Shown here: positions 9,713 through 42,120 of the stretch, one piece after another
Layout: each line of letters starts with the position of its first letter
Position numbering within the stretch: position 1 is the stretch's first letter
The notes under the pieces: generated by a model
Seen by the model: only the letters and a program-made list of their open reading frames with translations
What the model was told of the DNA's origin: nothing
Database searches by the model: none
From: an uncultured Collinsella sp.
Lineage (GTDB): Bacteria > Actinomycetota > Coriobacteriia > Coriobacteriales > Coriobacteriaceae
Length of the DNA stretch: 64,000 bases
Assembly (NCBI GenBank): GCA_900546475.1
Contig: URDI01000004.1
Location: forward strand, 1,451 to 65,450
Direction of reading: 5' to 3'
Position numbers and translations under genes: made by a program

Positions 9713-9722
9713 AGGGGGCTAG

Positions 9723-10256: not shown

Positions 10257-10381
10257 GTCTTGAGCCTGCCCCGCTACGACTCCCAATGGTGCCGTTTGCG
10301 GCGCAGATGGTTGGCTTGTTCGGGCAACGCTCGCTCTACAATAAAACGTATCTATGTCGACTTTGACCGCGGGAGGACCCG

Positions 10382-11686: not shown

Positions 11687-11847
11687 CGTGGTGGTGTGCG
11701 GCCAATACAGGCATCCCAGGCCCGGCGTGAGAACGTAGCGTCTGCTGGGCTGCTGTTCCAACAGCCATTAAGAAAATATGCCAGATGACAGAGGTGGAAC
11801 GGCGCAACAAACCACGGTCAGCGCCTAGATCTCGCTCGGCATCGGCG

Positions 11848-12723: not shown

Positions 12724-12863
12724 GGGTTGAGCGCCTCCTTGGATAATGGGTTTATCCTGCGAGTTTTATGGACATGAGGATACCGCCCCGCCATGAAGGT
12801 TTGATATGGCCGCGGCGAGACGGGGGTCATGTTGCGGGGAGCCATTTGGTTAAGGCTCGAATT

Positions 12864-13043
12864 GAAGGTGAATGTTTTTCCGAGAAGTGAACGAGTCAAT
12901 ATGGACCCCTGGAGCATGCACGCTTTTTTCGAATAAAACCGCTGGATTTCTAGGCAAAAAGCGCAGGAACTAAGCCCATAAAAATGTCAATGATACAGGG
13001 TGCTGATTTTACTCGTTCACTTCTCGGAAAAACATTCACCCTC
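12864..13043. repeat. 33-bp terminal inverted repeat pair flanking a 114-bp segment (candidate inverton or MITE)
   Basis: GAAGGTGAATGTTTTTCCGAGAAGTGAACGAGT at 12864-12896 matches the reverse complement of 13011-13043 with one mismatch. 30 bp are perfect. Confidence 0.85.
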
Positions 13044-13173
13044 GATATGCTGTCGGCTTCTCTTTGGTCGCCAAGATCTAAACGGTACGCCGTGAAGGGT
13101 GGTAGCGACGTTGTTGCTGCTTCTCTTATCTAGTAAATGAGGTGGGGCGCCGCCCAAGTCCTTTAGCTGTCGA

Positions 13174-13875
13174 TCACAGGTCGCGTGCCCGGTAGACCTT
13201 GGTGCTGATGGCGCAGCTGACAACGCCAAGGATGACCGTTGCCAGCGCGACGGCACCACACAGGCAACCGAGGACGGCAAGATCGGGATTCGTCCCTGCA
13301 ATCGACATGAGCTGGTTGCTGATGGGGTTGAATGAGTTTAGCGTGACCATGATAAGGCACATGAATAGGGCGTACAGACCAACGGATAGGCGTTGCGCCT
13401 TCATGTGTTCAAATCGAAAGAACAGAGGCAGTACCAAAAACACCGCCATGAGGGAGAAAAGCATCGATATTGCCGAGGCGATTGCGGTCTCAAAGACGGT
13501 CTCTCCCGTGGAGGGGATACCCACGCTGTTTAAGATCGGGATGGCGACGATACTCAACAGCACGGCCGCGCACGCCATGATGACCGAGAAAATAGTGATG
13601 CACAGGTAGCGTGCGCTGACGATGTCTTTGCGTGAGATGGGCAGCGTTGCCCGATAGCGCTCCCATCCGTTTTGGTTGTCGAGCCCGGCCAGCGACGTCA
13701 TGGCCATGATAGGCGACATGGCACTGATCGCGAAGGCGCCGGCGGCGCTCATGTCGGAATCACCATTCGATGCCCTGACGGCGGTCAGCACGACGAAGAT
13801 GAACAGGCCGACACCTGCGATGCTCGGGACGAGCGTGCGAACGATGGGAAGCTCGGACATAATGGCGCGTTTCAT
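13174..13875 (-). CDS. ABC-2-type transporter membrane protein (YtrC/D-like)
   Basis: Six hydrophobic helices. Its start overlaps the ATPase stop (ATGA), which implies an operon with the GntR regulator and the ABC ATPase. Confidence 0.7.
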   Translation of the reverse strand: MKRAIMSELPIVRTLVPSIAGVGLFIFVVLTAVRASNGDSDMSAAGAFAISAMSPIMAMTSLAGLDNQNGWERYRATLPISRKDIVSARYLCITIFSVIMACAAVLLSIVAIPILNSVGIPSTGETVFETAIASAISMLFSLMAVFLVLPLFFRFEHMKAQRLSVGLYALFMCLIMVTLNSFNPISNQLMSIAGTNPDLAVLGCLCGAVALATVILGVVSCAISTKVYRARDL

Positions 13876-14753
13876 TTCAAAGCCCCTTTCAGCATGAAGC
13901 GAAGATAGTCATCAATGGTTGCCCGATCGCAGGGAATCTCGGGGAAGGCCTCGAGCACTTCGCGGTGGTTGGGCACGAGCACGTCCACGCTGTAGGCGTG
14001 GCGGGCGGCGCGGGTGCCTTCGACGCAAGCCATGAGCTCGGCGGCCTGTGCCTGGGTGCAGTGGGCGATGCCGGCGCGGTCGGTAATGTCCTCGCGTGGC
14101 AGGTCAAACACAATCGAGCCGTTATCGATGCAGATGACGCGGTCGGCAGCACGATCGAGATCAGACGTAATGTGGCTCGAGAGCAGCACGCTGCGCTGGC
14201 CGTCGGCGACAAAGGCGAGCAGCTCATCGAGCAGTTCCTCGCGTGCCATGGGATCGAGGCCCGCGGTGCCTTCGTCCAAAACGAGCAGCTTGGCATGGTG
14301 GCTGAGCGCGCAGGCGAGCTGCAGCTTCATACCCATGCCGCGGGAGAGGTCCTTGACCTTTGTCTTGGGATCGAGGCCAAATCGGTTGATGAATCCGGCG
14401 AACGTTTCGCGGTCCCACGTGGGGTACGCCGGGCCTACGAGCGCCTCGATCTGGCCGACCTTGAGCGTGGAGGGGAAGGGACATGTGTCCAGCACGAGGC
14501 CGATGCGAGAGCGCAGGTGGCGTTGCGACTCATCGGGCGCGTCGGTGCCACAGCGCTGCCCAAACAGGTGCACCTCGCCGGCATCGAGCTTTATAAGCCC
14601 AAGCGTGGCGCGAATGGTCGTCGTCTTGCCGGCGCCGTTTGCGCCCACAAAGCCAACAATTTGGCCGGGCTCCACGGCCAACGTGACGCCACGTAGCGAA
14701 AAGCGGTCGCTCACGCGGCGTGAGATGCTTTTGAGTTCTAGCAAGTTTTGCAT
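13872..14753 (-). CDS. ABC transporter ATP-binding protein
   Basis: Walker A GANGAGKTT, signature LSRGMGMKL and Walker B LLVLDEGTAGLD are present. Confidence 0.92.
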   Translation of the reverse strand: MQNLLELKSISRRVSDRFSLRGVTLAVEPGQIVGFVGANGAGKTTTIRATLGLIKLDAGEVHLFGQRCGTDAPDESQRHLRSRIGLVLDTCPFPSTLKVGQIEALVGPAYPTWDRETFAGFINRFGLDPKTKVKDLSRGMGMKLQLACALSHHAKLLVLDEGTAGLDPMAREELLDELLAFVADGQRSVLLSSHITSDLDRAADRVICIDNGSIVFDLPREDITDRAGIAHCTQAQAAELMACVEGTRAARHAYSVDVLVPNHREVLEAFPEIPCDRATIDDYLRFMLKGALK

Positions 14754-14776
14754 GGCATAGCCTTTCTTGCAGATGG

Positions 14777-15157
14777 TTACTGCATGGTTTCGGGGGCTAC
14801 CAGGTCGAGCATCTCGTGCAGTTTATCGCGCGTGACGCCCACGGCTTCGGCTTGCGTTGCTGCCTGTGCGAGCAGCTCTTCGATATGGCAGAGCTGATTT
14901 TCGCGCAAGAGTTCTTGGTTGCCCTCGGCGACAAAACAGCCCTTGCCCTGCACAGTGCAGATAAAGCCGAGTTGCTCCAGGTCGGCGTAGGCGCGCTTGG
15001 TGGTGATGACACTCACGCCAAGATCGCTCGCGAGTGCACGGATGCTGGGGAGTTTGGCTCCCGCAGCAAGCGTGCCCGAAAGGATCTGAGCTTTGACCTG
15101 CGAGGTTATCTGCTCGTAGATGGGCTTGTCGCTCGAATTGGATAGGATGATGTCCAC
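14777..15157 (-). CDS. GntR-family transcriptional regulator, YtrA-like short form
   Basis: 126 aa with a winged HTH (KLPSIRALASDLGVSVITTKRAYADLE) and a short C-terminal helical tail. It is the first gene of the GntR-ABC operon. Confidence 0.88.
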   Translation of the reverse strand: MDIILSNSSDKPIYEQITSQVKAQILSGTLAAGAKLPSIRALASDLGVSVITTKRAYADLEQLGFICTVQGKGCFVAEGNQELLRENQLCHIEELLAQAATQAEAVGVTRDKLHEMLDLVAPETMQ

Positions 15158-15184
15158 AGCGGCTCCTTAGCTGATGGGCTACAC

Positions 15185-15216
15185 GTGTATATAACCGGTA
15201 AGCACAGTATATACAC
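15185..15216. promoter_or_regulatory. Candidate GntR operator (inverted repeat GTGTATATA-N14-TATATACAC)
   Basis: A perfect 9-bp inverted repeat lies 28 bp upstream of the GntR start. The right arm contains GTATATAC, which fits the GT-N-TA-N-AC GntR-type core. Confidence 0.4.
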
Positions 15217-15272
15217 ACTATGTACAGTTGTGCAAGAGGAAATTACGGGGCTGTCCGTCCCTCTACTCATTC

Positions 15273-15570
15273 ATCTCAATCTGTAACAGTAAGACCCGTT
15301 TTGGATGACTAACTGTTACAGATTGAGATCTTTCTGAGACGTCCGACCGTTTGTCTCGATTTGTAACATCTGGAGGTCAAAGACCCGTTTATCTGTTACA
15401 GATTGAGATTTTGTCGACAGGTCCATTCATTTGTCTTGATCTGTAACATCTAGACCCGTTTTTGCTGGCTAACTGTTACAGATCAAGATATTGGCTGCCC
15501 GCCCTGTGCGTTCATCTCAACCTGTAACATCTGGAGGTCGAAAACCCTTCTAGGTGTTACAGATTGAGAC
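15273..15570. repeat. Array of four ~80-bp tandem units, each a 16-18 bp stem hairpin (eight alternating copies of a TCTCAATCTGTAACA-type arm)
   Basis: The arm pairs are 15273-15290/15312-15329 (18 bp perfect), 15353-15368/15394-15409, 15433-15448/15474-15489 and 15514-15529/15555-15570. The loops share AGACCCGTTT. Unit starts are spaced 80, 80 and 81 bp apart. Confidence 0.9.
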
Positions 15571-15714
15571 AAACCGTCGCGGAACACCGCTGACATTCCA
15601 CCGTCCGAGCCCCAACTGATGAATTTGTCCTGATAGGCGCCCTATGGCGAGGTTTCGCGGCTACAATAGTGCGGTTACATCGACGTAATGCACTCAATGC
15701 AAGAAAGGATCCGC

Positions 15715-17328
<1,614 letters not shown>

Positions 17329-26939: not shown

Positions 26940-28943
26940 ATGTCGAAGCAAGCGGTCGTTGGAATCTTGGCGCATGTCGATGCCGGCAAGACTACGCTGG
27001 CCGAGGCCATGCTGTTCAACGCAGGTCGCATTCGCAAGCGCGGCCGTGTGGACGACGGCGACTCGCACCTGGATACCAACGCTATCGAACGCGAGCGCGG
27101 CATCACGATTTTCTCGTCGCAGGCCGTGCTCGACCACGGAGATGCCAACGTCATGCTCGTGGATGCACCGGGGCATGTCGATTTTTCTGCCGAGGCGGAG
27201 CGCACGTTGCGCGCGCTCGACTACGCGATTTTGGTTGTGGGCGCCAACGATGGCGTGCAGGGACACACCGAAACCCTGTGGCGCCTGCTTGCGCGCTATG
27301 ACATCCCGACGTTCGTCTTTATCAACAAAATTGATTTGGAGCATCCCGGCCGCGATGTTTTACTGGCACAACTTGGGCAGCGCCTTTCCGAGGGCTGCCT
27401 AGATGCCAGCGAACTACTGGCGGGTGGTGCCGTTCAGGAGGACGCTGCTGCGTTGGACGAGGCGGCGCTCGATGAGTTTCTTGAGACGGGCGAGCTTTCT
27501 GTTGCAACGCTGTCGCGCATGGTTCCCGAGCGCAAGCTCTTTCCCTGCTTTGCCGGCTCGGCGCTCAAGGACCAAGGCGTTGACGAGCTGCTGGATGGCA
27601 TATGCGCGCTGATGCGTGAACAGGCGTGGCTCCCGGAGTTTGCTGCGCGCGTCTATCGTGTCAGCCGCGGGGATCGTGGCGAGCGCTTGGCTTGGGTTAA
27701 AGTGACCGGCGGCACGCTGCATGCCAAACAGATGATTGACGGACGTTCCGGTGCCGAGGCATGGGAGCAGAAGGTCGATCAGGTACGCATCTATAACGGC
27801 GAGAAGTATGAGCTTGCCCAGGAAGTTGCCGCTGGCGGCATCTGCGCCGTGACGGGCCTCGCACACGTTCGCCCGGGTGATGCCCTGGGCGCGGAGCCCG
27901 CGGGCGATGCACCTGTCATTGCGCCGGTCCTCACCTATACGGTGCTACCGGGCGAACACGATGTCCATGCGGTGTTTAAAGCGCTGACCGAGTTGGCGGA
28001 CGAAGACCCCATGCTCGGCGTAAGCTGGAATACGCATCTTGAGCAGATTCACTTGCAGTTGATGGGAGCCGTGCAGCTCGAGGTCGTGCAGCGGGTGTTG
28101 GCCGATCGCTTTGGCCTTACGATTGAGTTTGAGTCCGGCGGCATTCTCTATAAGGAGACGATCTCGCAGCCGGTCGAGGGTGTGGGCCACTTTGAGCCAC
28201 TGCGCCATTACGCCGAGGTGCACCTGCGCCTTGAGCCGCTGCCGGCGGGCTCAGGCGTGCAATTTGGTACCGCTACCTCGACTGACGAGCTCGATCTGAA
28301 CTGGCAGCGCCTGGCGCTCACCAACGCCATGGAGCGCGATCACCTGGGCGTGTTGACCGGCTCGCCCATCACCGATGTGCGCATCACGCTTACGGGTGGC
28401 CGTGCACATGCCAAACACACCGAGGGCGGTGATTTTCGTCAGGCCACGTACCGCGCGATTCGTCAGGGTTTGATGCGGGCACGCGAGGCGGGTGCGGCGG
28501 TGCTGTTGGAGCCGTGGTACCACTTTGAGCTCGAGGTGCCGGGGGAGTGCGTGGGCAGGGCGCTTTCGGATGTCACGCGCATGGGCGCCGAGTACGAGCC
28601 GCCGGCGATGGCGGCCGACCGGGCGAAGCTTGTGGGTCGCGTGCCGGTATCCGAGGTGCAGGATTACGCGCTGGAGGTGGCTGCCTACACGAGCGGCCGC
28701 GGGCATTTGTACCTTGAGTTCGCCGGTTATGCGGCTTGCCATGATGCCGAGCGCGTCATCGAGGCGGCCGCCTATGAGCCCGAGGCCGATCTGCCCAACA
28801 CGCCCGATTCGGTCTTTTGCGCCCACGGCGCCGGCTATACGGTCAAATGGTACGACGTGCCCGCCGCGGCACACGTAAAGATCGATCCCGCCACCTTCCG
28901 CCCCTATCGCCCCGCCGACGCCGAGTTTTTCGGCCACATGTGA
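26940..28943 (+). CDS. TetM/TetO-like ribosomal-protection-type translational GTPase (EF-G paralog)
   Basis: GILAHVDAGKTTL, DAPGHVDF and FINKID G-motifs, with EF-G-like domains II-V. ATG 26940 has an AGGAGAG Shine-Dalgarno. The TGA stop lies inside palindrome copy 1. Confidence 0.85.
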   Translation: MSKQAVVGILAHVDAGKTTLAEAMLFNAGRIRKRGRVDDGDSHLDTNAIERERGITIFSSQAVLDHGDANVMLVDAPGHVDFSAEAERTLRALDYAILVVGANDGVQGHTETLWRLLARYDIPTFVFINKIDLEHPGRDVLLAQLGQRLSEGCLDASELLAGGAVQEDAAALDEAALDEFLETGELSVATLSRMVPERKLFPCFAGSALKDQGVDELLDGICALMREQAWLPEFAARVYRVSRGDRGERLAWVKVTGGTLHAKQMIDGRSGAEAWEQKVDQVRIYNGEKYELAQEVAAGGICAVTGLAHVRPGDALGAEPAGDAPVIAPVLTYTVLPGEHDVHAVFKALTELADEDPMLGVSWNTHLEQIHLQLMGAVQLEVVQRVLADRFGLTIEFESGGILYKETISQPVEGVGHFEPLRHYAEVHLRLEPLPAGSGVQFGTATSTDELDLNWQRLALTNAMERDHLGVLTGSPITDVRITLTGGRAHAKHTEGGDFRQATYRAIRQGLMRAREAGAAVLLEPWYHFELEVPGECVGRALSDVTRMGAEYEPPAMAADRAKLVGRVPVSEVQDYALEVAAYTSGRGHLYLEFAGYAACHDAERVIEAAAYEPEADLPNTPDSVFCAHGAGYTVKWYDVPAAAHVKIDPATFRPYRPADAEFFGHM

Positions 28944-28968
28944 CAAAGGGACAGTCCCTTTGTCACAT
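28938..28968. repeat. Palindrome family 1, copy 1 (ATGTGACAAAGGGAC-A-GTCCCTTTGTCACAT)
   Basis: A perfect 15+1+15 palindrome with central base A. Confidence 0.95.
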
Positions 28969-29036
28969 TCAGTTGGTGTAACTCGGTATAAGTTGGTATA
29001 ACTATTACCAGCCTTTGCCAATTCGAGGAGGCCGAC

Positions 29037-30149
29037 ATGAATCCAAATCCCTTTAAGCCAACGGCTGGTAAGCGGCCTCCGCTACTCATCGGTCGCGAGT
29101 CGGTCATCGAAGATTTTGAGGAAGGGCTCGATAACGGCGCCGGGGCGCCGGGCAGGCTCATGCTCATTACAGGAAACCGCGGCTGTGGCAAAACAGTTCT
29201 CCTGCGGGAGCTGCAACGTCTGGCCAGTGAGCGCGGATGGGCGGTTGTCTCCGATTCCGCTTCGCTTGGTTTATGCGACCGCTTGGCCGACGCACTCCGC
29301 TCGAATAAGCCCGTTGTGACGTCAATGGAGTTTGGCCCATCGTTTGGACGGATGTCGGTTGAGGCGGCGCGGGCAAAAGGCGAGACGTTGCGAGGGCTGG
29401 TCAACGAACGTCTCAAGAAACTCGGTCCAGGTAAGGGCATCCTGTTTGCGATTGACGAGGCTCAATCGGCGTCTATTGAGGAGCTGGCGGCCCTTGCCGT
29501 TCTTTATCAGCAGGTGCTGGGAGATCAGGATGCCACGGGCTTGCCCGATAGCGACCAGCGCGGTCTTGCGCTGGTCTTTGCCGGCTTGCCCAGCATGGTT
29601 GACGATCTGCTCGAAGAGCCGAGCGTGACGTTTTTGCGACGTGCCCAGCAGCGTACGTTGGGGACGATTTCTTTGCCCAAGGTGCGCGATTCGTATATCC
29701 AGACGGTCGAGTGTGCCGGTCTTTGCGTTGATGCGGGAACGGCGGACCTTGCAGCGCACAAGAGCATGGGGCATCCCTATATGGTTCAGCTGGTGGGATA
29801 TTACATGTGGCGGTCTGCTGTCCGGCGTGGCTCGCAAGTCATTGAAAGGCGCGATGTCGAGGATGGCCATGCGGATGCCGTCTCCGAGTTCTACGAAGCG
29901 GTTGACGCGCCTCTGTATTACGGACTGCGCACCCCACAGCGTCTCTTTATCGAGGCCATGGCGGTTGACGAGGACAAGCCGACGCGCATGGCGGATATCA
30001 TTGAGCGCTGCGACCGTACCCAGAGCTGGGCGAGTAAATATCGCGCAAGCCTGATTCGCGAGCGCGTCATCGAGGCTGCCGGATACGGTCTCGTCCGGTT
30101 TACCGTGCCCATGCTGAGCAAGTACATTCGCGATTGCGTTTTAATGTGA
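29037..30149 (+). CDS. AAA/STAND-like ATP-binding protein with a C-terminal winged-helix-like region
   Basis: Walker A GNRGCGKT and Walker B ILFAIDEAQ. The C-terminal part (TRMADIIERC..SKYRASLI) looks like a wHTH. The stop lies inside palindrome copy 2. Confidence 0.7.
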   Translation: MNPNPFKPTAGKRPPLLIGRESVIEDFEEGLDNGAGAPGRLMLITGNRGCGKTVLLRELQRLASERGWAVVSDSASLGLCDRLADALRSNKPVVTSMEFGPSFGRMSVEAARAKGETLRGLVNERLKKLGPGKGILFAIDEAQSASIEELAALAVLYQQVLGDQDATGLPDSDQRGLALVFAGLPSMVDDLLEEPSVTFLRRAQQRTLGTISLPKVRDSYIQTVECAGLCVDAGTADLAAHKSMGHPYMVQLVGYYMWRSAVRRGSQVIERRDVEDGHADAVSEFYEAVDAPLYYGLRTPQRLFIEAMAVDEDKPTRMADIIERCDRTQSWASKYRASLIRERVIEAAGYGLVRFTVPMLSKYIRDCVLM

Positions 30150-30175
30150 CAAAGGGACTGTCCCTTTGTCACATT
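30143..30175. repeat. Palindrome family 1, copy 2 (central base T)
   Basis: AATGTGACAAAGGGAC-T-GTCCCTTTGTCACATT, perfect 16+1+16. Confidence 0.95.
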
Positions 30176-30196
30176 CGATCAACAGGAAGGGGAGCG

Positions 30197-32689
30197 ATGG
30201 CGGTGTCGCAACAACCAAGCGCTATCGAGGTGCGTGGCGCGCGTGTCCATAACCTTAAGGACATCGATATCGATATTCCGCTGGGAAAGCTGGTGGGTAT
30301 TGCCGGCGTGTCGGGCTCGGGCAAGAGCTCGCTGGCGCTGGGTGTTTTGTATGCCGAGGGCTCGCGCCGTTACCTGGAGGCGCTCAGCACCTATACCCGC
30401 CGTCGGCTGACGCAGGCAGAGCACGCTCAGGTGGACGAGGTGCTGCACGTGCCGGCGGCACTCGCATTGCATCAGCGCCCCAGTGTACCGGGCGTGCGCT
30501 CGACTTTTGGCACCATGACCGAGCTCAACAACAGTCTGCGTCTGCTCTTTAGCCGCTGCGCCCATCACGTGTGCCCGCATTGCGGGGCGCGTGTGGAGCC
30601 GAGCCTTAACGTGGCCGCGGGCCTGTCGCTCGCGTGCCCCGCATGCGGCCGCGAGTTCTATGCGCCGGGGGCCGAGGACCTTGCCTTTAACAGTGGCGGC
30701 GCGTGTCCTACCTGCGGAGGCACCGGCGTCATGCGCGAGGTGGACGAGGCGAGCCTGGTGCCCGACGAGTCAAAGACCATCAACGAGGGCGCGGTGCTTC
30801 CCTGGGGCACGCTCATGTGGGATCTGATGAAGCAGGTGGCTGGCGAGGTGGGTGTGCGCACCGACGTGCCGTTTAACCAGCTCACGCCTGTCGAGCGCGA
30901 TATCGTGTTTCATGGTCCGGCGGTTAAGAAACACATTCTCTACGTTCCCAAAAACGGCGAGGGCGCCACGCCGCTCGACTTTACCTATTACAACGCCGTC
31001 TATACCGTTGAGAATGCGCTCGCCAAGGTTAAGGACGATAAGGGACTTAAGCGCGTAGCTCGCTTTTTGCGCGAGGGCCCGTGCCGCGATTGCGGCGGCA
31101 CGCGTCTCTCCGAGGCTGCGCGCCAGCCCCAGGTGCGTGGTATCAATCTGGCACAGGCGGCGGCCATGACGCTGGGCGAGGCGATTGAGTGGGTGCGCGA
31201 GGTGCCTTCATCCTTGCCGACCGAGATGCGGCCCATGGCGACGGACATCTGCGATTCGTTTTTGAGCACGGCGCGTCGCCTGGTCGACCTGGGGCTCGAT
31301 TACCTTTCGCTCGACCGCGCCGGTGCCACGCTATCCACAGGTGAGCGCCAGCGCGTGCAACTTGCCCGCGTGGTGCGCAACCGATCGACGGGTGTGCTCT
31401 ATGTGCTGGACGAGCCCTCGATCGGTTTGCATCCTGCCAATGTCGACGGCCTGGTAGGCGTGATGCGCGATTTGGTGGATGACGGCAACACCGTGGTCGT
31501 TGTTGACCACGATACGCGCGTTCTAGCGGAAGCTGACTATCTGGTCGAGATGGGCCCCGTTGCCGGAGCAGGCGGTGGTAATGTGATTGCTGCAGGTACG
31601 GTGGACGAGGTCGAACAATCGCAGGGCAGCCGCATCGCCCCGTTCTTGCGCTCGGACCCCAAGCGTCTGCGCCCGCAGGTGGCTGACGACGAACTGTTCG
31701 ACCTAGGCCATATCCGCATGGCGACCGATGCCATCCATACCGTCAAACCACTCGAAGTCGATATCCCGCGCGGCCGCCTTGTCGCGGTGACGGGTGTTTC
31801 GGGTTCGGGCAAGACGACACTGGTGCTCGAGACGCTCATCCCGGCACTCAAGGCGCAGGCAGCCGGCGAGCGCCTGCCCAGGCACGTGCGTTGGATCGAT
31901 GCCGAGGGTATCGCGCGCGCCAACCTGATTGACGCCACGCCCATCGGTGCCAACGTGCGCTCGACGGTGGCGACCTATGCCGACATCCATGACGAGCTGC
32001 GCCGCGCCTTTGCCCGTACGCCCGAGGCCAAGGAGGCAGGGTATAAGGCGGGCGCCTTTAGCTACAACACTGGCACCTTGCGCTGTCCTACGTGCGATGG
32101 CACGGGTTCGATATCGCTTGACGTGCAGTTTTTGCCCGATGTCGAGATCGTCTGCCCTGCATGCCGCGGCTCGCGTTATGCCGACGCAGCCTCGTATATC
32201 CATCGCGAGGGCAAGGACGGCAGCCTACTTACATTGCCGCAGCTCATGGATATGAGTGTGGACGAGGCCATTGACGCCACGTTGGGACTCAAGAAAGTCC
32301 AGGCGCGCTTGCAGACCTTGCACGACCTGGGTTTGGGCTACTTGACACTGGGCGAGCCCACGCCGGCGCTCTCGGGCGGCGAGGCGCAGCGACTTAAGCT
32401 TGCGAGCGAGATGGGCCGCGTGCAGGACGATGCCGTATTCGTATTCGACGAGCCCACGATCGGCCTGCATCCGCTCGATGTTCAGGTGCTGCTGAGTGTG
32501 TTTGACGGCCTCGTTGCCAAGGGCGCCACGGTTATCGTGATCGAACACGACCTCGACCTTATCCGTAATGCCGATTACGTGATCGACATGGGCCCGGGCG
32601 GCGGCGACGCAGGCGGACAAATCGTCTGTGTCGGCACGCCGGGTGACATCGCTGCCTGCTCCGCAAGCATCACCGGCCGCTACCTCTAA
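30197..32689 (+). CDS. UvrA-like excinuclease ABC subunit A paralog (two ABC ATPase modules with zinc fingers)
   Basis: VHNLKDIDIDIPLGKLVGIAGVSGSGKSSLA, LSTGERQRVQLA, a second GVSGSGKTTL and LSGGEAQRLKLA, plus CxxC pairs. The protein is shorter than canonical UvrA. Confidence 0.88.
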   Translation: MAVSQQPSAIEVRGARVHNLKDIDIDIPLGKLVGIAGVSGSGKSSLALGVLYAEGSRRYLEALSTYTRRRLTQAEHAQVDEVLHVPAALALHQRPSVPGVRSTFGTMTELNNSLRLLFSRCAHHVCPHCGARVEPSLNVAAGLSLACPACGREFYAPGAEDLAFNSGGACPTCGGTGVMREVDEASLVPDESKTINEGAVLPWGTLMWDLMKQVAGEVGVRTDVPFNQLTPVERDIVFHGPAVKKHILYVPKNGEGATPLDFTYYNAVYTVENALAKVKDDKGLKRVARFLREGPCRDCGGTRLSEAARQPQVRGINLAQAAAMTLGEAIEWVREVPSSLPTEMRPMATDICDSFLSTARRLVDLGLDYLSLDRAGATLSTGERQRVQLARVVRNRSTGVLYVLDEPSIGLHPANVDGLVGVMRDLVDDGNTVVVVDHDTRVLAEADYLVEMGPVAGAGGGNVIAAGTVDEVEQSQGSRIAPFLRSDPKRLRPQVADDELFDLGHIRMATDAIHTVKPLEVDIPRGRLVAVTGVSGSGKTTLVLETLIPALKAQAAGERLPRHVRWIDAEGIARANLIDATPIGANVRSTVATYADIHDELRRAFARTPEAKEAGYKAGAFSYNTGTLRCPTCDGTGSISLDVQFLPDVEIVCPACRGSRYADAASYIHREGKDGSLLTLPQLMDMSVDEAIDATLGLKKVQARLQTLHDLGLGYLTLGEPTPALSGGEAQRLKLASEMGRVQDDAVFVFDEPTIGLHPLDVQVLLSVFDGLVAKGATVIVIEHDLDLIRNADYVIDMGPGGGDAGGQIVCVGTPGDIAACSASITGRYL

Positions 32690-32691
32690 CC

Positions 32692-32726
32692 GAATGTGAC
32701 AAAGGGACTGTCCCTTTGTCACATTC
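32692..32726. repeat. Palindrome family 1, copy 3 (central base T)
   Basis: GAATGTGACAAAGGGAC-T-GTCCCTTTGTCACATTC, perfect 17+1+17. Confidence 0.95.
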
Positions 32727-32878
32727 CCGTTAAAGCCAGCATCTGTCGGCATGGCGCTTGAACAGTTTTCGCGTGAGGGTCAAAATGGCCTCAACCCATT
32801 CGCGAAATTTGCACGCCCTATAGTGAGTGGGCTCTCGCTTGAGCTGATGCTGCCAAGAGGCAGCCGATAGGGGCAATT

Positions 32879-33514
32879 ATGGACAATCGAATCTTTGGGT
32901 ATGCGCGTGTCTCTTCCGCAGACCAGAACCTGGGCCGCCAATTAGACGCGCTGGCAAGGTTTCCCGTGCAACGGAGCCAGATTTATGCTGACAAGGCAAG
33001 CGGTAAGGACTTTAAGCGTCCCCAGTACCAGCGTCTTCTTCGCAGGCTGCGCGAAGGCGACGTTCTCGTGATCAAAAGTATCGATCGTTTGGGCCGCAAT
33101 TATCGTGAAGTCCTCGATGAGTGGCGACGCATCACGGTGGATAGGAATGCTGCCATCGTGGTGCTTGATATGCCATTGCTCGATACGCGCGAGCAGCCTG
33201 ATGGCATTACGGGAACGTTCATGGCGGATCTGGTTCTTCAAATCTTGAGCTATGTGGCGCAGCTAGAGCGCGAAAACATCAAGCAACGCCAGGCGGAGGG
33301 CATCGCGTCGGCGCGTTTGCGTGGCGTGAAATTTGGAAGGCCGGCATTCGAACGCCCAGATAGCTATCGCGATGTCATCAAATTATTCGAAGGGGGAGAG
33401 GTTACGAGGCGAGAGGCTGCTGCGCTTTTGAACGTCAGCGTCTCGACGTTCGATCGTTGGAGACGGGCGGACGCGACCAGTTTTGACCGTTTGTCGTCTG
33501 CTCGTCCTCTTTAG
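32879..33514 (+). CDS. Small serine recombinase (resolvase/invertase family)
   Basis: FGYARVSSADQNLGRQ carries the catalytic Ser, with VIKSIDRLGRN and a C-terminal HTH (EAAALLNVSVSTFDRWRR). Confidence 0.9.
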   Translation: MDNRIFGYARVSSADQNLGRQLDALARFPVQRSQIYADKASGKDFKRPQYQRLLRRLREGDVLVIKSIDRLGRNYREVLDEWRRITVDRNAAIVVLDMPLLDTREQPDGITGTFMADLVLQILSYVAQLERENIKQRQAEGIASARLRGVKFGRPAFERPDSYRDVIKLFEGGEVTRREAAALLNVSVSTFDRWRRADATSFDRLSSARPL

Positions 33515-33679
33515 CTAGACATTTTGACGAGGGGAGTTAATTACACAGAGCCCACTCCTTCCCTCGATGTTTATCCAGTTCACGCCCTTGAACCAAATAG
33601 TGCCACCGCGTTGCCAATTCGTCTGCTTTTTGACGAGGGCTATATATCGTGTTTTGTTTTGTATTTAAAGGAGGACGAA

Positions 33680-34492
33680 ATGAAAAGGCGTTATGGAATG
33701 GCTCTGGTGACCGCGCTATTTGCGATGGTGTTTTGTGGGGCGCTTCTGCTGAGCGGCTGTTCGCAGTCTGAGAAGAAAAATGATGAACCTGATTATGCCG
33801 ATGACCGTGCAATGGCTGTGATTGCTCAAGGTTATCAAAAGCGGTCGGATTATATCGAATCGCTTGGAGAAGATGCTGATCTAAGCTCGAATAAAGTGCG
33901 AAAAGAGATAATTAAAACCGAGATCGATAACGACAAAGAACTCAAAAAGGCGCCTTTTAAAGACGCTAAGATGCAGGAAGATGTCATCGCCTATCTCAAC
34001 CTGCTTGACAATCAGCTTGATGTTACCAAGAAGTATGCGGAATCTGATCCTAAGTACTACGAGGAATGGGAAAAGGCCTACGACGCACGATCCGCACAGC
34101 TTAAGAAACTGGTCGATCGATATGACTTAACAGTCGATGACGAGTATCAAGATGAGTTTGACGAGCTAATTAAGAACGGTAGGACCGTAGAGGAGAAGAC
34201 GCATAACGATGAGGTTATCAACGGTTTGCTCTCATCGGCGAATTTTGAGAAAAGTGATGATGGCTACGGTCTCTATACGTACACCGCAATCGTCGAAAAT
34301 ACCTCTGACATATCGTTCGAAAACGTTTATCTAAACGTTGCCCTTTACGATGCCGATGGTGTGAGGGCGGAAGAATGCTACGCAGATACATCTGCCTGGG
34401 CGCCTGGCGAGAAGGTGAAGTTTGAGGTAATGAGCGAGGTTGACGCCTCGAGGCTTGCGCCGACGGTGTCGGGTTACAGCGTCAAGGAATAG
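33680..34492 (+). CDS. Lipoprotein, helical N-domain plus C-terminal beta domain (possible FxLYD-type)
   Basis: Lipobox LLLSGC, an AAAGGAGGA Shine-Dalgarno, and a C-terminal ..NVYLNVALYDADG.. motif. The gene is low in GC. Confidence 0.75.
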   Translation: MKRRYGMALVTALFAMVFCGALLLSGCSQSEKKNDEPDYADDRAMAVIAQGYQKRSDYIESLGEDADLSSNKVRKEIIKTEIDNDKELKKAPFKDAKMQEDVIAYLNLLDNQLDVTKKYAESDPKYYEEWEKAYDARSAQLKKLVDRYDLTVDDEYQDEFDELIKNGRTVEEKTHNDEVINGLLSSANFEKSDDGYGLYTYTAIVENTSDISFENVYLNVALYDADGVRAEECYADTSAWAPGEKVKFEVMSEVDASRLAPTVSGYSVKE

Positions 34493-34636
34493 TTCGCGGG
34501 AATTGAAATGAAAGCGCGGCCGTTTTCTTTGAACGGTCGCGCTTTGCATTGAGCCGTTGACGGAATGATTCGTGCCATCATGCTCGCGCTGGAAGATGAT
34601 GGGAACGTCGGGGCAATAAAGGAAAGGTGAAACAGG

Positions 34637-35281
34637 ATGGCAAAAACAAAATTTCTTACAACGATACCGCAAAAGGTTGCCTTTGGCGGGTTAGTCGTTG
34701 TTACGGTTCTAGCGGTTGCCTGGGGTATCTGGATGTCATTGACGCGTAATCCTACAACGATCAGCGATGATTCGATTCGCGAGGAGATCACGCCAGTCGT
34801 TAAGCTCGTGACGTACGAGTACAACTTCACCCAGCTGCTTTCAATTGATGAGGCGGGCAATCCGCTTGGGTGGGAAAACCCCTTTACGTCTAAGCGATAT
34901 GTCGCAACGATTGACGGCAAAGCTGACATCGGGATCGATGCCGATAAGATGAAGGTTACAATCGTACGGGCTAATATGGCCGATAAGAATTCAGAGGTCA
35001 AGAGCGTAAAGGTTATACTGCCTCACTCGGAGATCACCTCGTTCTCGACAGACCCCAATACGCTTAAGAAATATGTTGAGGACAATGGCTTTCTTAACTG
35101 GAATCAAGTAAGCACGGATGATCTAAACACGTTATTGAAACAGGCAAAGAAAGAGCAGACCAAGAAGGTCAAGGAAAGCAATATGCTCCAAGAATCTGAT
35201 GATAGAGCCTGCGCCCTTATCGAAAAACAGGTCAAAGCCTTATGCGGCGATGACGTCAATGTTGACGTTGCGTTTGAGTAG
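34637..35281 (+). CDS. N-terminally membrane-anchored hypothetical protein (possibly DUF4230-like)
   Basis: A single TM (FGGLVVVTVLAVAWGIWM) is followed by a ~180-aa soluble domain. The family assignment is from memory only. Confidence 0.65.
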   Translation: MAKTKFLTTIPQKVAFGGLVVVTVLAVAWGIWMSLTRNPTTISDDSIREEITPVVKLVTYEYNFTQLLSIDEAGNPLGWENPFTSKRYVATIDGKADIGIDADKMKVTIVRANMADKNSEVKSVKVILPHSEITSFSTDPNTLKKYVEDNGFLNWNQVSTDDLNTLLKQAKKEQTKKVKESNMLQESDDRACALIEKQVKALCGDDVNVDVAFE

Positions 35282-35292
35282 GGGTGAATAGC

Positions 35293-35424
35293 ATGTTGGA
35301 TAAACGGCAACAGATCGCTGGGGCCGGCTCGCTTCTGATCGGGCACTACACCACCTTTCTCGACACTACCTTCAACTCGGCATTTGGCGATGAATATACG
35401 GTTGATTTCGACTATCGGAAATAG
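35293..35424 (+). CDS. Possible 43-aa ORF filling the gap between island genes
   Basis: MLDKRQQIAGAGSLLIGHYTTFLDTTFNSAFGDEYTVDFDYRK. Its TAG overlaps the GGAGG Shine-Dalgarno of the next gene. Its own Shine-Dalgarno (GGGGTG) is weak. Confidence 0.25.
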   Translation: MLDKRQQIAGAGSLLIGHYTTFLDTTFNSAFGDEYTVDFDYRK

Positions 35425-35433
35425 GAGGTCACA

Positions 35434-36495
35434 ATGGAGGATAAAGACGATCTGGCTGTTGTCGAAAGGGAGGAGCCGCCGCGACATAAGCAGAGTTTTG
35501 ATATCCGTAAGGCCGCTGCCGGGTTGGTTGATGGCGCCGGAAGCGCGATGGCGGGCGCGGTTGCAACCGTACAGAAAGTTGCCGATGGTGCAATGCGTGC
35601 TGCAACTCCGCTGGTCGATGACGCCTTGGCAGCTATTGCTGATGCGGCCGATGGTGCGGCAGGTACTGCTGCGGATATCGGTGACGCGGTCAACGATTGG
35701 GCATACCAGCAGCAGCTTAATAGATACAGGCCGGTAACCAAGGAGACCTATCAGAGTCCTTCATTCCATTTGCCGAACATGATTCGAATTGTTGACGGAA
35801 ATGAGCGCCGGGGCATCGACGCCTGTAGAGATGCTATTGGTTGGCTGGATACTGTTAAGGGCACGCAGATTTTCAATCTGTACCGCGAGGCAATCGGGGA
35901 TAGCGAATTGTCTTTCTATCCTAAACCATCTCTTTACTCCACATATTACATAGATGCTTTTGATCGGTCTCGCTTTGTTGACCTTGACTCTTATTTTGCA
36001 ACCATGCAACAAGACAAGATGGCCGAGTTGAGACGGATTGCGTTCATGCTTGGCGCGAAGCGCTGCAAGCTGGAGGTGACGGAGTACGAGGAAACTCGGC
36101 GAGGCCGCCAGGTTAAGGGAAATGCCAAGGCGGGAAAGAAGGGCTCGGTTCGAATCGACGGTTCCTTGAGCGATTCAACGAGAAGCGAGAAGAAAATTCT
36201 GTTTACACAGGAATTTGAGGGCGACATGGTTCCACAGCGCCCTGAGCTCCATTGGTATGCCCATGACTCAGATGTTCTCTTGTTAATTGAGACGAGATGT
36301 GGTGGAGAGGATAAAAACAAGGCGAAGAGCTATCGGGTCGAATTGAAAAGTGAAACGACCATGACCATGTCTGTATCACTTGCTATGGCTATCGACGAGG
36401 CATGCAGCAAACTGAACATAAGGGCGAATTCGAGCCTGACAAGCCAAGCTAAGCGAGAACTCCGGCAATCGTTTGTATTTGAAGTTGAATTCTGA
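35434..36495 (+). CDS. Hypothetical 353-aa protein, no family recognised
   Basis: A GGAGG Shine-Dalgarno lies 6 nt upstream. The N-terminal ~90 aa are an Ala/Asp/Gly-rich low-complexity region. The C-terminal ~250 aa are globular and mix charged and hydrophobic residues. Confidence 0.75.
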   Translation: MEDKDDLAVVEREEPPRHKQSFDIRKAAAGLVDGAGSAMAGAVATVQKVADGAMRAATPLVDDALAAIADAADGAAGTAADIGDAVNDWAYQQQLNRYRPVTKETYQSPSFHLPNMIRIVDGNERRGIDACRDAIGWLDTVKGTQIFNLYREAIGDSELSFYPKPSLYSTYYIDAFDRSRFVDLDSYFATMQQDKMAELRRIAFMLGAKRCKLEVTEYEETRRGRQVKGNAKAGKKGSVRIDGSLSDSTRSEKKILFTQEFEGDMVPQRPELHWYAHDSDVLLLIETRCGGEDKNKAKSYRVELKSETTMTMSVSLAMAIDEACSKLNIRANSSLTSQAKRELRQSFVFEVEF

Positions 36496-36653
36496 TGTGT
36501 GGGGACCATTTGCTGCGGGGTTCCTGTCCTTTACGGGGTGGAAGCATAGAAACCCATACGGTGCAACTCAGTAAAAGTTAGTAATATACTGGCATCTTTT
36601 CTAGTTAAAAGCGTTTAAAACCGGTTAATTCCATTTAAATCAGTAGGTGCAAT

Positions 36654-36684
36654 ATGTGACAAAGGGACAGTCCCTTTGTCACAT
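36654..36684. repeat. Palindrome family 1, copy 4 (central base A)
   Basis: ATGTGACAAAGGGAC-A-GTCCCTTTGTCACAT, perfect 15+1+15. It contains the trmL stop codon on the minus strand. Confidence 0.95.
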
Positions 36685-37278
36685 TCCGGGGAAGTTTGTC
36701 TGGCGCAGGGCCTCGTAGAGGACGATGGCGGCGCTGTTGGAGAGGTTGAGTGCGCTGATGCGGTAGTCGTCCGGATTGACGAAGTTGCCGCAGATATCCT
36801 GCTGAAGGATGGCCTCGTGGCCGCTCTCGCTATGCCCGAGCGCCTCCTCGTGGGCTTCCCAGGCCTCGGCGTTATCGAGCGAGTCGCAGTCGCGCAGCAT
36901 GGGGATGCGCTCGCAGCGCGCAGGCGCTGCGGCGAGCAGCTCTTCGGGAATCCCCGAGCTCTCGCTGCCAAAGACCAGATAGTCACCGTCGCGGTAGGTG
37001 CTTTGCGCATAGGTGCGGCGCGCCTTTTTGGTCAGCAGATGCAGGCGTTCATCGGCGGGGGAGAGGCCGTTGCACGTAAGGAAATCCTCCCAGCCGGCAT
37101 AGGTCGTCACGTCCAAGTTTTGCCAGTAGCCCAGGCCGGCGCGACGCACCGTCTTGTCGTCGAGCGAAAAGCCCAACGGCTCCACCAGGTGCAGGCGGGT
37201 ACCGGTGACCACGCAGGTACGGCCGATATTGCCCGTATTGGCCGGAATCTCGGGCGCATACAGCACGATATTGAACAT
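36679..37278 (-). CDS. trmL: tRNA (cytidine/uridine34-2'-O)-methyltransferase TrmL (SPOUT) with an internal insertion
   Basis: MFNIVLYAPEIPANTGNIGRTC, LVFGSESSGIP, RIPM and LNLSNSAAIVLYEALRQ are present. The start is at cat 37276-37278. Confidence 0.85.
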   Translation of the reverse strand: MFNIVLYAPEIPANTGNIGRTCVVTGTRLHLVEPLGFSLDDKTVRRAGLGYWQNLDVTTYAGWEDFLTCNGLSPADERLHLLTKKARRTYAQSTYRDGDYLVFGSESSGIPEELLAAAPARCERIPMLRDCDSLDNAEAWEAHEEALGHSESGHEAILQQDICGNFVNPDDYRISALNLSNSAAIVLYEALRQTNFPGM

Positions 37279-39576: not shown

Positions 39577-39959
39577 CACAAACTCCCTCTGCTGTCGGTG
39601 ACTTCTGCGGAGGATTATCGCACGAGCGGGCAGATGGCGTGGGGCGCGATTCCAGCGACCGCCCATCATGCGCCCCGTCTCGATCGGTAGCTTCATCCGA
39701 GTGTTTCTCGGGGCCGGGAAGCCGGCCCCGAGGGCCAACGGCGGGCTCGCTCACCAGGTACGAGAGGGACACGGTCCAGAGTATGTTGGAGCTCGGGGCC
39801 TCATGCAAGCCGATTGTGAGGAGTCTGGGCAGGTCGCCTTCGATGGCGAACTCTGAGGTCTTAGAAGGCGGGCTGCTGCGGCGGCTATGGTTTATACTAA
39901 GGCGGTTGCTATCGAGTAATTCATACTTGGTTTGATTCGATTGTGAATGCGTAACTAGG

Positions 39960-40301
39960 ATGGAAAGCAAAGGAAACTCTATGGAAACAGAGGATGCTGT
40001 TTGCTTGATGACTTCGATTGCCTTGATTGTCCTTTCAATCCAATACCGAAGAGGAAGATGGCTCTGCTCAATTGCTGGATATGATGTCACAAAAAGGGAG
40101 AGCGAGATTGATATACGCCCCTACGCAAAGCTGATTTCTTCTGTGACGTTATGGATGGGGCTGCTGTTTTTCTTGTGGGCGGTAGAGGGCTGGGTACGCG
40201 ATTGGAATACCAGCGTTTTTGAAGTTTTGGTTCTACTTCTGTTCAGCTTGGCCTCTTTGTCGTTCGTGCGGCTCGTTAGGTTTGTGTTTATGAGGCGATA
40301 G
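39960..40301 (+). CDS. Small hypothetical membrane protein in an AT-rich islet
   Basis: 113 aa with three hydrophobic helices. The locus is visibly AT-richer than its surroundings. An alternative start is at 39981. Confidence 0.45.
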   Translation: MESKGNSMETEDAVCLMTSIALIVLSIQYRRGRWLCSIAGYDVTKRESEIDIRPYAKLISSVTLWMGLLFFLWAVEGWVRDWNTSVFEVLVLLLFSLASLSFVRLVRFVFMRR

Positions 40302-40587
40302 CCAGCGGAAGTGGCTGGACGACAAAATGGACCAATGCAGCCAATTGTCAATAGAATTTGATAGGCTTGGCTTAACAGATTTACTCGAGGGCATATCCGT
40401 GGCGGGGGATAGGTTCTATCTTGTTGAGCACTTATTTGCATCAGGCAAAGTAAACCAAGAGTATCGAAACGGTGCCCCCGGGCCCGCTAGGGACTGCGGG
40501 GGGGGCGTTCGGCTAACTGCGGGTACGGCCTATTTGCCCAATGTGTTCGCCCGAGATCGGAAATTAACCATCATGCGCCCCATAACG

Positions 40588-42120
40588 CTAGTCCAGCTTG
40601 GTGCCCGGTACCTGTGGCGCCTCTTTAATCAGCGCATTAAGTTCGTTCAAAATGGAAACGGGCTGTCGGTCGACGGCGTCCAGATGAAGCGTCGCCACGC
40701 GAAGGGGCGGCTGATATTCAAATGAGCCGAGGAGCACGGGCGATCCCAAGAACCGTTCGATTTCGTCTGCAACCGCGTCGGTCTCTTCGGGATCAAAGTC
40801 GTCAAAGAGCGCCACGAACATCGGTCCGGTCGAGCGGAACAGACGACCCTTGCCGCGCGAGCAATCCATGAGGCAGGCGGCGCTTTCTGCCAAAACGCGG
40901 TCGCCTGCATCAAAGCCAAAGCGGGCATTGACCTGTGCGATTTCGTCGATTTTAATGGCGATCAAGCCCGCGTTTCGTGCCACGCGACGCATCTCGCCAA
41001 TGGCGTTGACCAGGGCGTGGATATCGCCCAGACCGGTCACGGAATCGGTCGTATCTGCCAAGCTTCGGTTGGTGACAATGCCCACATACATGTTGGGCTC
41101 GGTATCGGTGCCGTCCAGGCGGTAACCTGTGCAGTCGCAAAGCGCGTATTTTCCGGCGGTATTCATGACGCGATACTGCATGCAGTGGAAGTGCCACGTG
41201 CCGTTTACCACCATATCGAGCTCGGCACGTACGTTGTCGCGGTCCTCGGGGTGAACACGGGCAAGCCATATATCGAGCGAGTTGTAGGGATGCTGGGAGG
41301 GTAGGTCAAAATCGCGCACGGCATTAACCGACCATTGCGATTCGCCGGTGTCGAGGTTAATGATGAACGGATAGCGTGTCTCGGAGCTCATGGAGATCGC
41401 TTGGAACACTCGGTCGTTGCAGGGGGGGGGTTGTTCGGTGACCGGGCGTTGCGGCGCATCGCCTTCTTCCGGTTGTTGCACACGGTACATGAGCTTGTAG
41501 CGATACATTTTGCGGTCGGCGTCCTTTGTCATCTGGCGACGCGTATCGCCTGCAAGTGGGTCGACGCGCGAGCAGCCAAAGCTAAAGCTGGCGATCATGG
41601 GCGCCTTGCCGTCCGATGTTGCCTCGATAAGATTGGCACGCGTCCGCTCCAGGCGCTGCTCGAGCTCGGCTTCGTCTGTCGTGGGGGATATAAGTACAAA
41701 TTCGTCTCCACCGATACGGAACAGCAACTCATCGTGCTCCATTGTCTCGGTGAGTGCGCGGCAGATGCTCAGAATGTAGCGATTGCCCTCGGCGTGGCCA
41801 AACTTATCGTTGCAATGCTTAAGGCGGTCGATATCGATATAGGCGCAGGTGAAGGGGGTGCCTTTGCGCCAGAGCCGATCGACATGGCGGTCGAGTCCGC
41901 CACGGTTGCCAAGACTGGTGAGCGAGTCGATATAGGCGCCGTGCTCAAGCAGCTCGCGTTCTTGTTGCAGGATGGCAAATGTCTTCTGTAGCTGCTCGCC
42001 GATGGCGCACAGCTCCGGGGGCAGCGCGGCAACATCGAGCTCGGTGGTTGAGGCCCCGTTCGCAAGTCGCTGAAGATGAGCGATGATTGATTGCTCGCCC
42101 AGGCGATACGACTCGTTCAT
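40588..42120 (-). CDS. Diguanylate cyclase: GGDEF - PAS-like - degenerate GGDEF-like domain
   Basis: DSLTSLGNRGG..YIDIDRLKHCNDKFGH..RIGGDEFVLI, then a PAS-like segment and a C-terminal GGDEF-like domain lacking the motif. The start is at cat 42118-42120. Confidence 0.85.
   Translation of the reverse strand: MNESYRLGEQSIIAHLQRLANGASTTELDVAALPPELCAIGEQLQKTFAILQQERELLEHGAYIDSLTSLGNRGGLDRHVDRLWRKGTPFTCAYIDIDRLKHCNDKFGHAEGNRYILSICRALTETMEHDELLFRIGGDEFVLISPTTDEAELEQRLERTRANLIEATSDGKAPMIASFSFGCSRVDPLAGDTRRQMTKDADRKMYRYKLMYRVQQPEEGDAPQRPVTEQPPPCNDRVFQAISMSSETRYPFIINLDTGESQWSVNAVRDFDLPSQHPYNSLDIWLARVHPEDRDNVRAELDMVVNGTWHFHCMQYRVMNTAGKYALCDCTGYRLDGTDTEPNMYVGIVTNRSLADTTDSVTGLGDIHALVNAIGEMRRVARNAGLIAIKIDEIAQVNARFGFDAGDRVLAESAACLMDCSRGKGRLFRSTGPMFVALFDDFDPEETDAVADEIERFLGSPVLLGSFEYQPPLRVATLHLDAVDRQPVSILNELNALIKEAPQVPGTKLD

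Follow-up and report, generated by a model that had tools for sequence, protein, structure and literature searches.

A candidate phase-variation cassette with a 100-bp invertible segment upstream of a predicted envelope operon in Collinsella

We analyzed an accessory islet located between a uvrA-like gene and trmL in a 64-kb stretch of DNA from an uncultured Collinsella sp. of the C. aerofaciens group (contig URDI01000004.1). This whole stretch is referred to as the window, and coordinates are positions within it unless another locus (L number) is named. The islet (32692–36686, plus strand) encodes a small serine recombinase, a lipoprotein, a membrane-anchored DUF4230 protein and a protein of 353 amino acids (P353). 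A segment of 100 bp between the recombinase and the lipoprotein gene (33521–33620), hereafter the switch, is found in both orientations among genomes. We interpret the islet as an accessory phase-variation cassette, in which a Sin/Bin-like recombinase flips the switch in front of an envelope operon, and assign this interpretation a probability of about 0.72. According to this model, the adjacent recombinase would exchange strands within an AGAC/GTCT core and thereby invert positions 33521–33620; the flip would toggle transcription or translation of the operon, resulting in cells that differ in envelope make-up. The position of the switch suggests this effect on expression, while adjacency, family membership and a parallel in Xiamenia point to the recombinase as the invertase. 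Among the actinobacteria of the human gut, Collinsella is one of the most prevalent genera. A phase-variable envelope operon is a known kind of system, and the cargo described here is uncharacterised.

Identification of the invertible segment

The window was first compared with ten loci encoding an identical P353 protein. In one of them, originating from isolate AM17-1 (L004), window positions 33517–33624 match the opposite strand with 99% identity and the surroundings are collinear. Overall, such an opposite-strand match of this interval (96–99% identity, both flanks collinear) was observed for L004/L019 and L067. The breakpoints in L067, a metagenome-assembled genome (HGM04285), are identical to those of L004. 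Since L004 carries allele A and L067 allele B of the cargo genes (see below), the two flips represent independent events. Across all fetched loci, the segment was oriented as in the window in 125 cases and flipped in three, the latter corresponding to two independent genomes.

The alignment of both orientations defined two recombination sites. The left site (33505–33536) contains the core AGAC (33517–33520) and the inner half ATTTTGACGAGGGG, and the right site (33609–33641) contains the core GTCT (33621–33624) and the outer half GCTTTTTGACGAGGG. With slashes marking the junctions, the window reads ...CTTTAGCTAGAC/ATTTTGACGAGGGG...GTTGCCAATTC/GTCTGCTTTTTGACGAGGG..., and L004 reads ...CTTTAGCTAGAC/GAATTGG...CCCCTCGTCAAAAT/GTCTGC.... 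Only the AGAC/GTCT tetranucleotide is perfectly shared between the two sites. As a perfect repeat of 4 bp is far below the k-mer sizes used by assemblers, the flip is not an assembly artefact. The left site overlaps the stop codon of the recombinase gene (33512–33514), which is 3 nt away from the left core, and the right core is located 56 nt upstream of the lipoprotein ATG. The recombinase gene always adjoins the switch. In L014, the switch is nearly identical to that of the window and its sites are conserved, although the flanks diverge and P353 is only 66% identical. With both orientations present and a recombinase next to it, the switch is an inverton by the core definition of this class.

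Several observations weigh against a role in phase variation. The inverted repeats are very weak, matching at 17 of 36 positions around the core. Two independent flipped assemblies face more than 100 in the orientation of the window, and none of the 37 Collinsella elements in a metagenome-contig collection was flipped; the switch either flips rarely or strongly favours one state. Furthermore, the recombinase resembles classical invertases less than it does the resolvases Sin and Bin3. A sigma-70 consensus scan of both orientations revealed no promoter in the switch, Coriobacteriia promoters being outside the range of the tool, so that its regulatory output is putative. Finally, in L160 the same switch is followed by genes for a DUF6591 secreted protein and a DUF4230 protein and then directly by trmL, and because P353 is absent there, it is not obligatory in the switched unit.

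Taken at face value, part of this evidence would fit a recombinase that is the leftover resolvase of a decayed transposon or plasmid, with flips that are accidental or assembly artefacts and play no regulatory role. The enzyme is most like Sin/Bin3 and Tn3-type resolvases, thousands of copies with 48–50% identity are found on Firmicutes plasmids, flipped copies are uncommon, scanning the switch gave no promoter, and L123 carries a clearly accidental inversion-deletion in another part of the operon. Nevertheless, we consider this explanation unlikely, because two allelic backgrounds show breakpoints that agree to the single base, the switch varies less between species than its flanks do, and the recombinase open reading frame (ORF) is intact in nearly all loci (78–100% identity). 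In addition, a like layout with near-perfect inverted repeats is found in Xiamenia, and the accident in L123 differs from the switch by its deletions and a 7-nt microhomology.

A systematic search for a second inversion in all loci returned only self-matches of the palindromes described below and this non-programmed event. In L123 (2508–2755, compared with L151), a piece of 248 bp reaching from the 3' end of the DUF4230 gene to the 5' end of the P353 gene is inverted. The inversion is accompanied by deletions of 61 and 93 bp, with the microhomology CGGATAT, and leaves both genes disrupted. This is an accidental event or a chimeric assembly rather than a programmed inversion.

Potential regulatory output of the switch

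Three candidates for the output of the switch can be proposed. First, a weak -10-like motif recognized by eye (CTCTG-TGTAAT / TACAAT) lies on a strand that is directed towards the operon in the flipped state only and could then drive its expression. Second, a hairpin formed exclusively in the flipped state might act on the transcript. Here, the motif TTTTGACGAGGG is located inside the left site and outside the right site, and the flip joins the two copies into a palindrome of 12–13 bp. The flipped right site reads CCCTCGTCAAAA-N8-TTTTGACGAGGG and is predicted to fold into a hairpin of -19 to -22 kcal/mol (z-score -5 to -6), 40–60 nt upstream of the lipoprotein start; this hairpin is absent in the window state. 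Third, the flip could determine whether a fixed TATA-like box immediately downstream of the right site is occluded. At even odds, our guess is that the common orientation, as present in the window, corresponds to the OFF state.

The same features raise the question of whether the switch is real but mainly targets the recombinase gene or a signal at the transcript level instead of providing an invertible operon promoter. For instance, it could yield an antisense transcript into the 3' end of the recombinase gene, or the flipped-state hairpin could serve as an attenuator or stabiliser of read-through mRNA. The overlap of the left site with the recombinase stop codon, the hairpin upstream of the lipoprotein gene in only one state, and the lack of a consensus promoter in the switch are all in line with such a scenario. 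However, no U-tract follows the hairpin in alleles B and C, and the hairpin itself may be a by-product of site symmetry. We therefore regard this alternative as improbable and favour a switch acting on expression of the envelope operon.

Two further candidates in this region were rejected. A pairing between the recombinase 3' end and the ribosome-binding site of the lipoprotein gene (33502–33512 with 33668–33678) seemed to show compensatory changes between allele A and L014 (6102–6113 and 6268–6279), but was dropped, as alleles B, C and D lack it and its energy is only marginally better than in shuffled sequences. An ORF for a 40-aa leader peptide running through the switch was likewise discarded: the differences between loci show no clustering at synonymous positions, and only in allele A does it share the reading frame of the lipoprotein gene.

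The recombinase and its relatives in Coriobacteriia

The original prediction of a 211-aa serine recombinase of the resolvase/invertase type (32879–33514, plus strand) was confirmed by a match to PF00239 (E = 2.2e-32) spanning profile positions 1–144 of 145. This N-terminal catalytic domain is intact and is followed by a C-terminal helix-turn-helix (HTH), recognized by the HTH_23 and HTH_28 models at residues 166–197 (E = 1-2e-5). The catalytic motif GYARVSSADQ, read from the sequence, aligns with the N-terminus of Sin/Bin3. The nearest solved structure is Sin/Bin3 (2r0q, E = 2.5e-30), followed by the Tn3/gamma-delta resolvases and then by Gin (E = 4e-17).

Homologues with 63–69% identity are widely distributed among Coriobacteriia, with examples in Olsenella, Atopobiaceae, Adlercreutzia and Xiamenia. 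In Xiamenia xianingshaonis (L105; WPCR01000007.1, 5686–5803), the gene for a 65%-identical recombinase is followed by a near-perfect inverted repeat of 22 bp (AAAGTAGACATTTCCGAGAGTC), which flanks 74 bp and has the core TAGACATTT in common with the left site of Collinsella. Genes for a 320-aa membrane protein and a 128-aa tail-anchored protein are located downstream of the repeat. Based on this layout, the Xiamenia element is probably a related inverton, of which a single orientation was seen.

Further homologues precede other cargo. In L107 (4001–7892), the homologue is located before an operon for SPFH (Band_7_1) and zinc-ribbon proteins with uncharacterised proteins of 117 and 520 aa, and in L104 (4992–6283) a C. 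aerofaciens paralogue precedes a VanZ family gene; the homologues followed by VanZ or SPFH-domain genes are 59.5% and 63% identical. A clear inverted repeat was found in Xiamenia only, and none in the gaps of L104, L106 and L107. Across the three contexts inspected (L105, L107 and L104), the recombinase gene thus repeatedly stands ahead of co-directional genes whose products are predicted to be membrane-associated, an arrangement that recurs in Coriobacteriia.

The cargo: hypervariable envelope proteins and P353

The first cargo gene (33680–34492, plus strand) encodes a lipoprotein of 270 aa with a signal peptide, the lipobox LSGC, a helical domain and a C-terminal domain containing a VALYD motif. 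The lipoprotein with this motif had been noted in the original prediction, and the motif could now be assigned to the NCBIfam FxLYD domain (NF038353; residues 197–261, 62.3 bits at a cut-off of 23, E = 3e-17). The second gene (34637–35281, plus strand) encodes a protein of 214 aa with one N-terminal membrane helix serving as an anchor. This predicted single-pass membrane protein also proved correct and belongs to a named family, DUF4230 (PF14014; 75.3 bits at a gathering cut-off of 27, E = 7e-21); the corresponding proteins of allele B (E = 1e-23) and allele D pass the same model. To our knowledge, neither the DUF4230 nor the FxLYD family has a known function. Our literature search found no paper mentioning FxLYD. 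For DUF4230, the single text retrieved describes a non-significant biofilm phenotype in S. mutans (bioRxiv 10.64898/2026.03.25.714184). A single-sequence structure model of the DUF4230 protein reached a mean predicted local distance difference test (pLDDT) value of 41, which is too low to be used.

Four alleles of the cargo were distinguished: allele A, represented by the window; allele B (e.g. L046); allele C (e.g. L056), with a recombinase of about 80% identity and an extra AAA gene; and allele D (L160, 174–2150), which consists of the genes for the DUF6591 secreted protein and a DUF4230 protein and has no P353. Among P353-bearing loci spanning alleles A–C, the lipoproteins share 58–60% identity between allele groups and the DUF4230 proteins of alleles A and B only 22%, compared to 78–92% for the recombinase between allele groups and 96–100% for P353 across alleles. 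The flanking genes are 91–100% identical in close relatives, with lower values in L014/L015. Thus, the lipoprotein and DUF4230 genes, whose products are predicted to be exposed on the surface, are hypervariable, whereas the recombinase and P353 diverge no more than their neighbours. The DUF4230 protein of the window is 60% identical to that of allele D.

Traces of allelic exchange can be recognized in the window itself. The DUF4230 gene of alleles B and C and of L014 terminates in ...FGDEYTVDFDYRK, its stop codon being located 9 nt before the P353 gene. The window contains a stretch of 54 nt (35371–35424; 17 codons plus stop) that matches the 3' end of the DUF4230 gene of allele B exactly and lies after the allele-A stop codon. 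This stretch forms the tail of an ORF of 43–46 codons (start at 35284 or 35293, end at 35424, plus strand), which the original prediction had listed as a possible 43-aa peptide; owing to its allele-B tail, the ORF represents the scar of a cassette replacement and is probably no gene. The scar marks the right breakpoint of an allelic replacement of the lipoprotein and DUF4230 gene pair.

Truncated alleles were also encountered (P0010, P0011 and P0013; L006 9204–9614; L176; L083): P353 proteins of 238–258 aa in clusters of 32–54 members, a DUF4230 protein of 136 aa, a recombinase of 183 aa together with a lipoprotein of 213 aa, and one half recombinase. These recurrent truncations suggest that the module is frequently lost or inactivated. 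Together with the inversion-deletion in L123, they fit a dispensable module under fluctuating selection.

P353 (35434–36495, plus strand) had been described as a protein without a recognisable domain, which was borne out by searches against Pfam, NCBIfam and PADLOC. By inspection, it has no signal peptide or transmembrane segment, and its N-terminus is helical, of low complexity and rich in Ala and Gly. The family is large and unnamed, comprising 631 clusters at 50% identity with E < 1e-3, including 318 with E < 1e-30; a second profile search, in a set of 5.8 billion proteins and limited by a candidate cap, contributed almost nothing further. An AlphaFold2 model of P353, based on 32 diverse members, reached a pLDDT of 78.6 with 173 residues above 90. 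It is confident over residues 90–353, predicting a conserved alpha/beta domain with a beta hairpin of about 50 residues, and the N-terminal helices are of low confidence. A Foldseek search with this model gave nothing significant (best E = 0.1 in the PDB and 0.0025 in BFVD; template modelling scores of at most 0.14). Pore-forming toxins and FliF rings headed the PDB results solely on account of the long hairpin of P353 and were rejected. A profile search of the PDB sequences returned only helical bundles matching the N-terminus, and a few family members showed weak N-terminal matches to apolipophorin-like amphipathic helices. In one member of the P353 family (P0143, 451 aa), the N-terminal 267 residues are fused to DUF3427 (PF11907, E = 9e-71), representing either a real fusion or a chimeric gene call.

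The original prediction had also likened the cargo to envelope-stress, abortive-infection or surface-exclusion modules. We obtained no evidence for a defence, abortive-infection or exclusion system. None of the three cargo proteins had a match with E < 0.001 in PADLOC-DB 2.0; the best match of the DUF4230 protein was PbeC (E = 0.0037), covering 38 residues only. Likewise, 32 members of the P353 family gave no PADLOC match at E = 0.1, and the family had no matches in the phage or plasmid collections.

Linkage of the three cargo genes is weak outside Collinsella-like Coriobacteriia. In L097, a MerR-like gene is accompanied by a 42%-identical FxLYD lipoprotein and a P353 homologue in the absence of DUF4230. 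L098 combines MerR, a multi-pass membrane protein, a P353 homologue and a TM2 protein, and L101, which is Clostridia-like by gene content only, contains a solitary P353 homologue among housekeeping genes. Within Collinsella, the linkage is broken in L160.

Regarding the cellular role, a hypervariable lipoprotein and a hypervariable, extracytoplasmic DUF4230 domain under a stochastic switch suggest a surface property under selection, for which phage or host immunity would be the selective agents. A far-reaching version of this idea would hold that Coriobacteriia possess a family of cryptic invertons with Sin-like recombinases and near-absent repeats, which escape repeat-based detectors, and that the Collinsella copy switches a hitherto unrecognised envelope module of three parts, with the FxLYD lipoprotein and the DUF4230 protein on the outside and P353 with its novel fold on the inside, as a phage-receptor mask, a surface-exclusion or an immune-evasion device; we consider this version improbable.

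Palindromes and occupancy of the site between the uvrA-like gene and trmL

As described in the original prediction, both edges of the islet coincide with a palindrome. The left copy (copy 3, 32692–32726) reads GAATGTGACAAAGGGAC-T-GTCCCTTTGTCACATTC and adjoins the stop codon of the uvrA-like gene, and the right copy (copy 4, 36652–36686) overlaps the stop codon of trmL. In total, the 64-kb window holds four copies of the 35-bp palindrome, compared to 0 expected by chance, with matches starting at 28939, 30145, 32695 and 36655, all in the stretch from an EF-G-like gene to trmL. Window positions 28939–36686 thus form an array of units (AAA-ATPase, uvrA-like gene, islet) with a palindrome between each, so that, beyond the islet, the neighbouring AAA and uvrA-like genes are bracketed in the same way. 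For both trmL and the AAA gene, the last two codons, ATG-TGA (Met-stop), come from the palindrome. Its central base varies between A, T, C and G among strains. Since the opposite orientation claimed for copies 3 and 4 is based on this single base, it is not meaningful.

Alternative occupants of the site were sought in contigs encoding an identical neighbouring CobW protein. An empty site consisting of the trmL stop codon, a single palindrome and the stop codon of the uvrA-like gene, as had been anticipated, exists in L172. In L169, L170, L173 and L177, the site is occupied by an AAA_16-wHTH gene (wHTH, winged HTH), and in L178 by a truncated copy of this gene. Each unit at this site is bounded by the palindrome, including cassettes without a recombinase (L169–L178, around 8820–13850). 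These data reveal a cassette that is present or absent at a palindrome-marked hot spot. The palindrome may mark the limits of cassettes or a hot spot of recombination; alternatively, it may be no more than a local hairpin of the repetitive extragenic palindrome or terminator type. A more far-reaching and improbable idea is that the palindrome-bounded units represent a new integron-like mechanism of cassette exchange without an integrase.

A scan of species-representative genomes yielded 155 matches to P353, and context was obtained from the best 80 of these. All best 80 are from Collinsella or Coriobacteriaceae, and wherever their contigs reach the flanks, the module has the uvrA-like gene on one side and trmL on the other, always in the same orientation. 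The exact P353 protein is contained in 850 blocks of a public assembly collection, mostly from human gut metagenomes.

Least probable of all is that the palindromes are the substrate of the recombinase, which would move or invert the entire 4-kb islet as a mobile element with a new defence or exclusion system: presence and absence do map exactly to the palindromes, with a single copy at the empty site, composition is foreign to the host (see below) and the cargo is envelope-located and uncharacterised, but the palindrome also bounds recombinase-less cassettes (AAA_16-wHTH, uvrA-like), the islet is inverted in none of more than 120 loci, the sole asymmetric position of the palindromes varies freely, the module of L014/L015 (P353 66% identical) lies complete beside trmL with no palindromes at all, and the cargo gave no significant PADLOC match and no P353 relatives in phage or plasmid collections. 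In addition, no small resolvase/invertase-type enzyme is known to integrate DNA, which further counts against it. The original idea of a recombinase inverting DNA was therefore right, but the evident substrate is the 100-bp switch and not the palindromes.

Comparison with known inversion systems

Well-known invertons are the capsule promoters of Bacteroides fragilis, which are flipped by the serine invertase Mpi, and fimS of E. coli. Like these, the Collinsella switch is a short intergenic segment found in both orientations beside a recombinase and upstream of strain-polymorphic surface or envelope genes. It differs in its host, an actinobacterium of the class Coriobacteriia, in its degenerate repeats with a perfect core of 4 bp (17/36), in the dominance of one orientation among assemblies, and in the outcome of the sigma-70 consensus scan, which identified no promoter. 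The NCBIfam model for Mpi scored 49 bits on the Collinsella recombinase, compared to a cut-off of 272. Given the degeneracy of the repeats, repeat-based detectors probably miss the Collinsella element.

With Hin, Gin, Cin and Pin, the system shares a small serine recombinase with a C-terminal HTH and inversion between two sites with a short central core. The A/T-rich half-site ...TTTTTGA... presumably resembles the hix half-sites. In contrast to Hin and Gin, the Collinsella enzyme is nearer to Sin/Bin3, the segment comprises 100 bp instead of kilobases, and the switch is located downstream of the recombinase gene, neither containing this gene nor lying upstream of it. As far as the sequence allows a classification, the Collinsella element is no Hin/Gin-type system. 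The resolvases Sin, Bin3 and Tn3 show the best similarity among solved structures and the same domain layout. Resolvases delete DNA between directly repeated res sites, whereas the product seen in Collinsella is an inversion, and a transposon or plasmid context is missing.

Our literature search found no account of an inverton from Collinsella or any other member of the Coriobacteriia. Should the operon be under its control, the switch would offer a handle on surface heterogeneity in Collinsella, an example of an inverton with repeats too degenerate for repeat-based detection, and a natural ON/OFF tool to study the function of the FxLYD, DUF4230 and P353 families. The strain-variable hot spot with its clean empty site lends itself to strain typing and to studies of how cassettes turn over.

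Composition of the islet

The islet has a GC content of 0.499, compared to 0.589 for the window (standard deviation 0.036 in 1-kb windows). In 300-bp windows, values of 0.43–0.57 were obtained for the islet and of 0.60–0.65 for the flanks. The atypical composition noted in the original prediction is thus real, but the figures given there (33–52% against 73%) were overstated. The GC content at third codon positions (GC3) amounts to 0.53–0.60 in the islet genes, compared to 0.75–0.88 in the uvrA-like gene, trmL and cobW. Together with the empty site, GC and GC3 support the view of an accessory, compositionally foreign segment. The description as a tightly packed operon did not hold, as the successive genes are separated by gaps of 165, 144 and 152 nt. 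Scans for Rfam families and tRNAs in the islet gave nothing meaningful.

Other 1-kb windows with a GC content below 0.52 are located at 6751–8750, about 14751–15750 and 39751–40750. The last of these holds an ORF for a small membrane protein (39960–40301), which is absent or variable between related loci.

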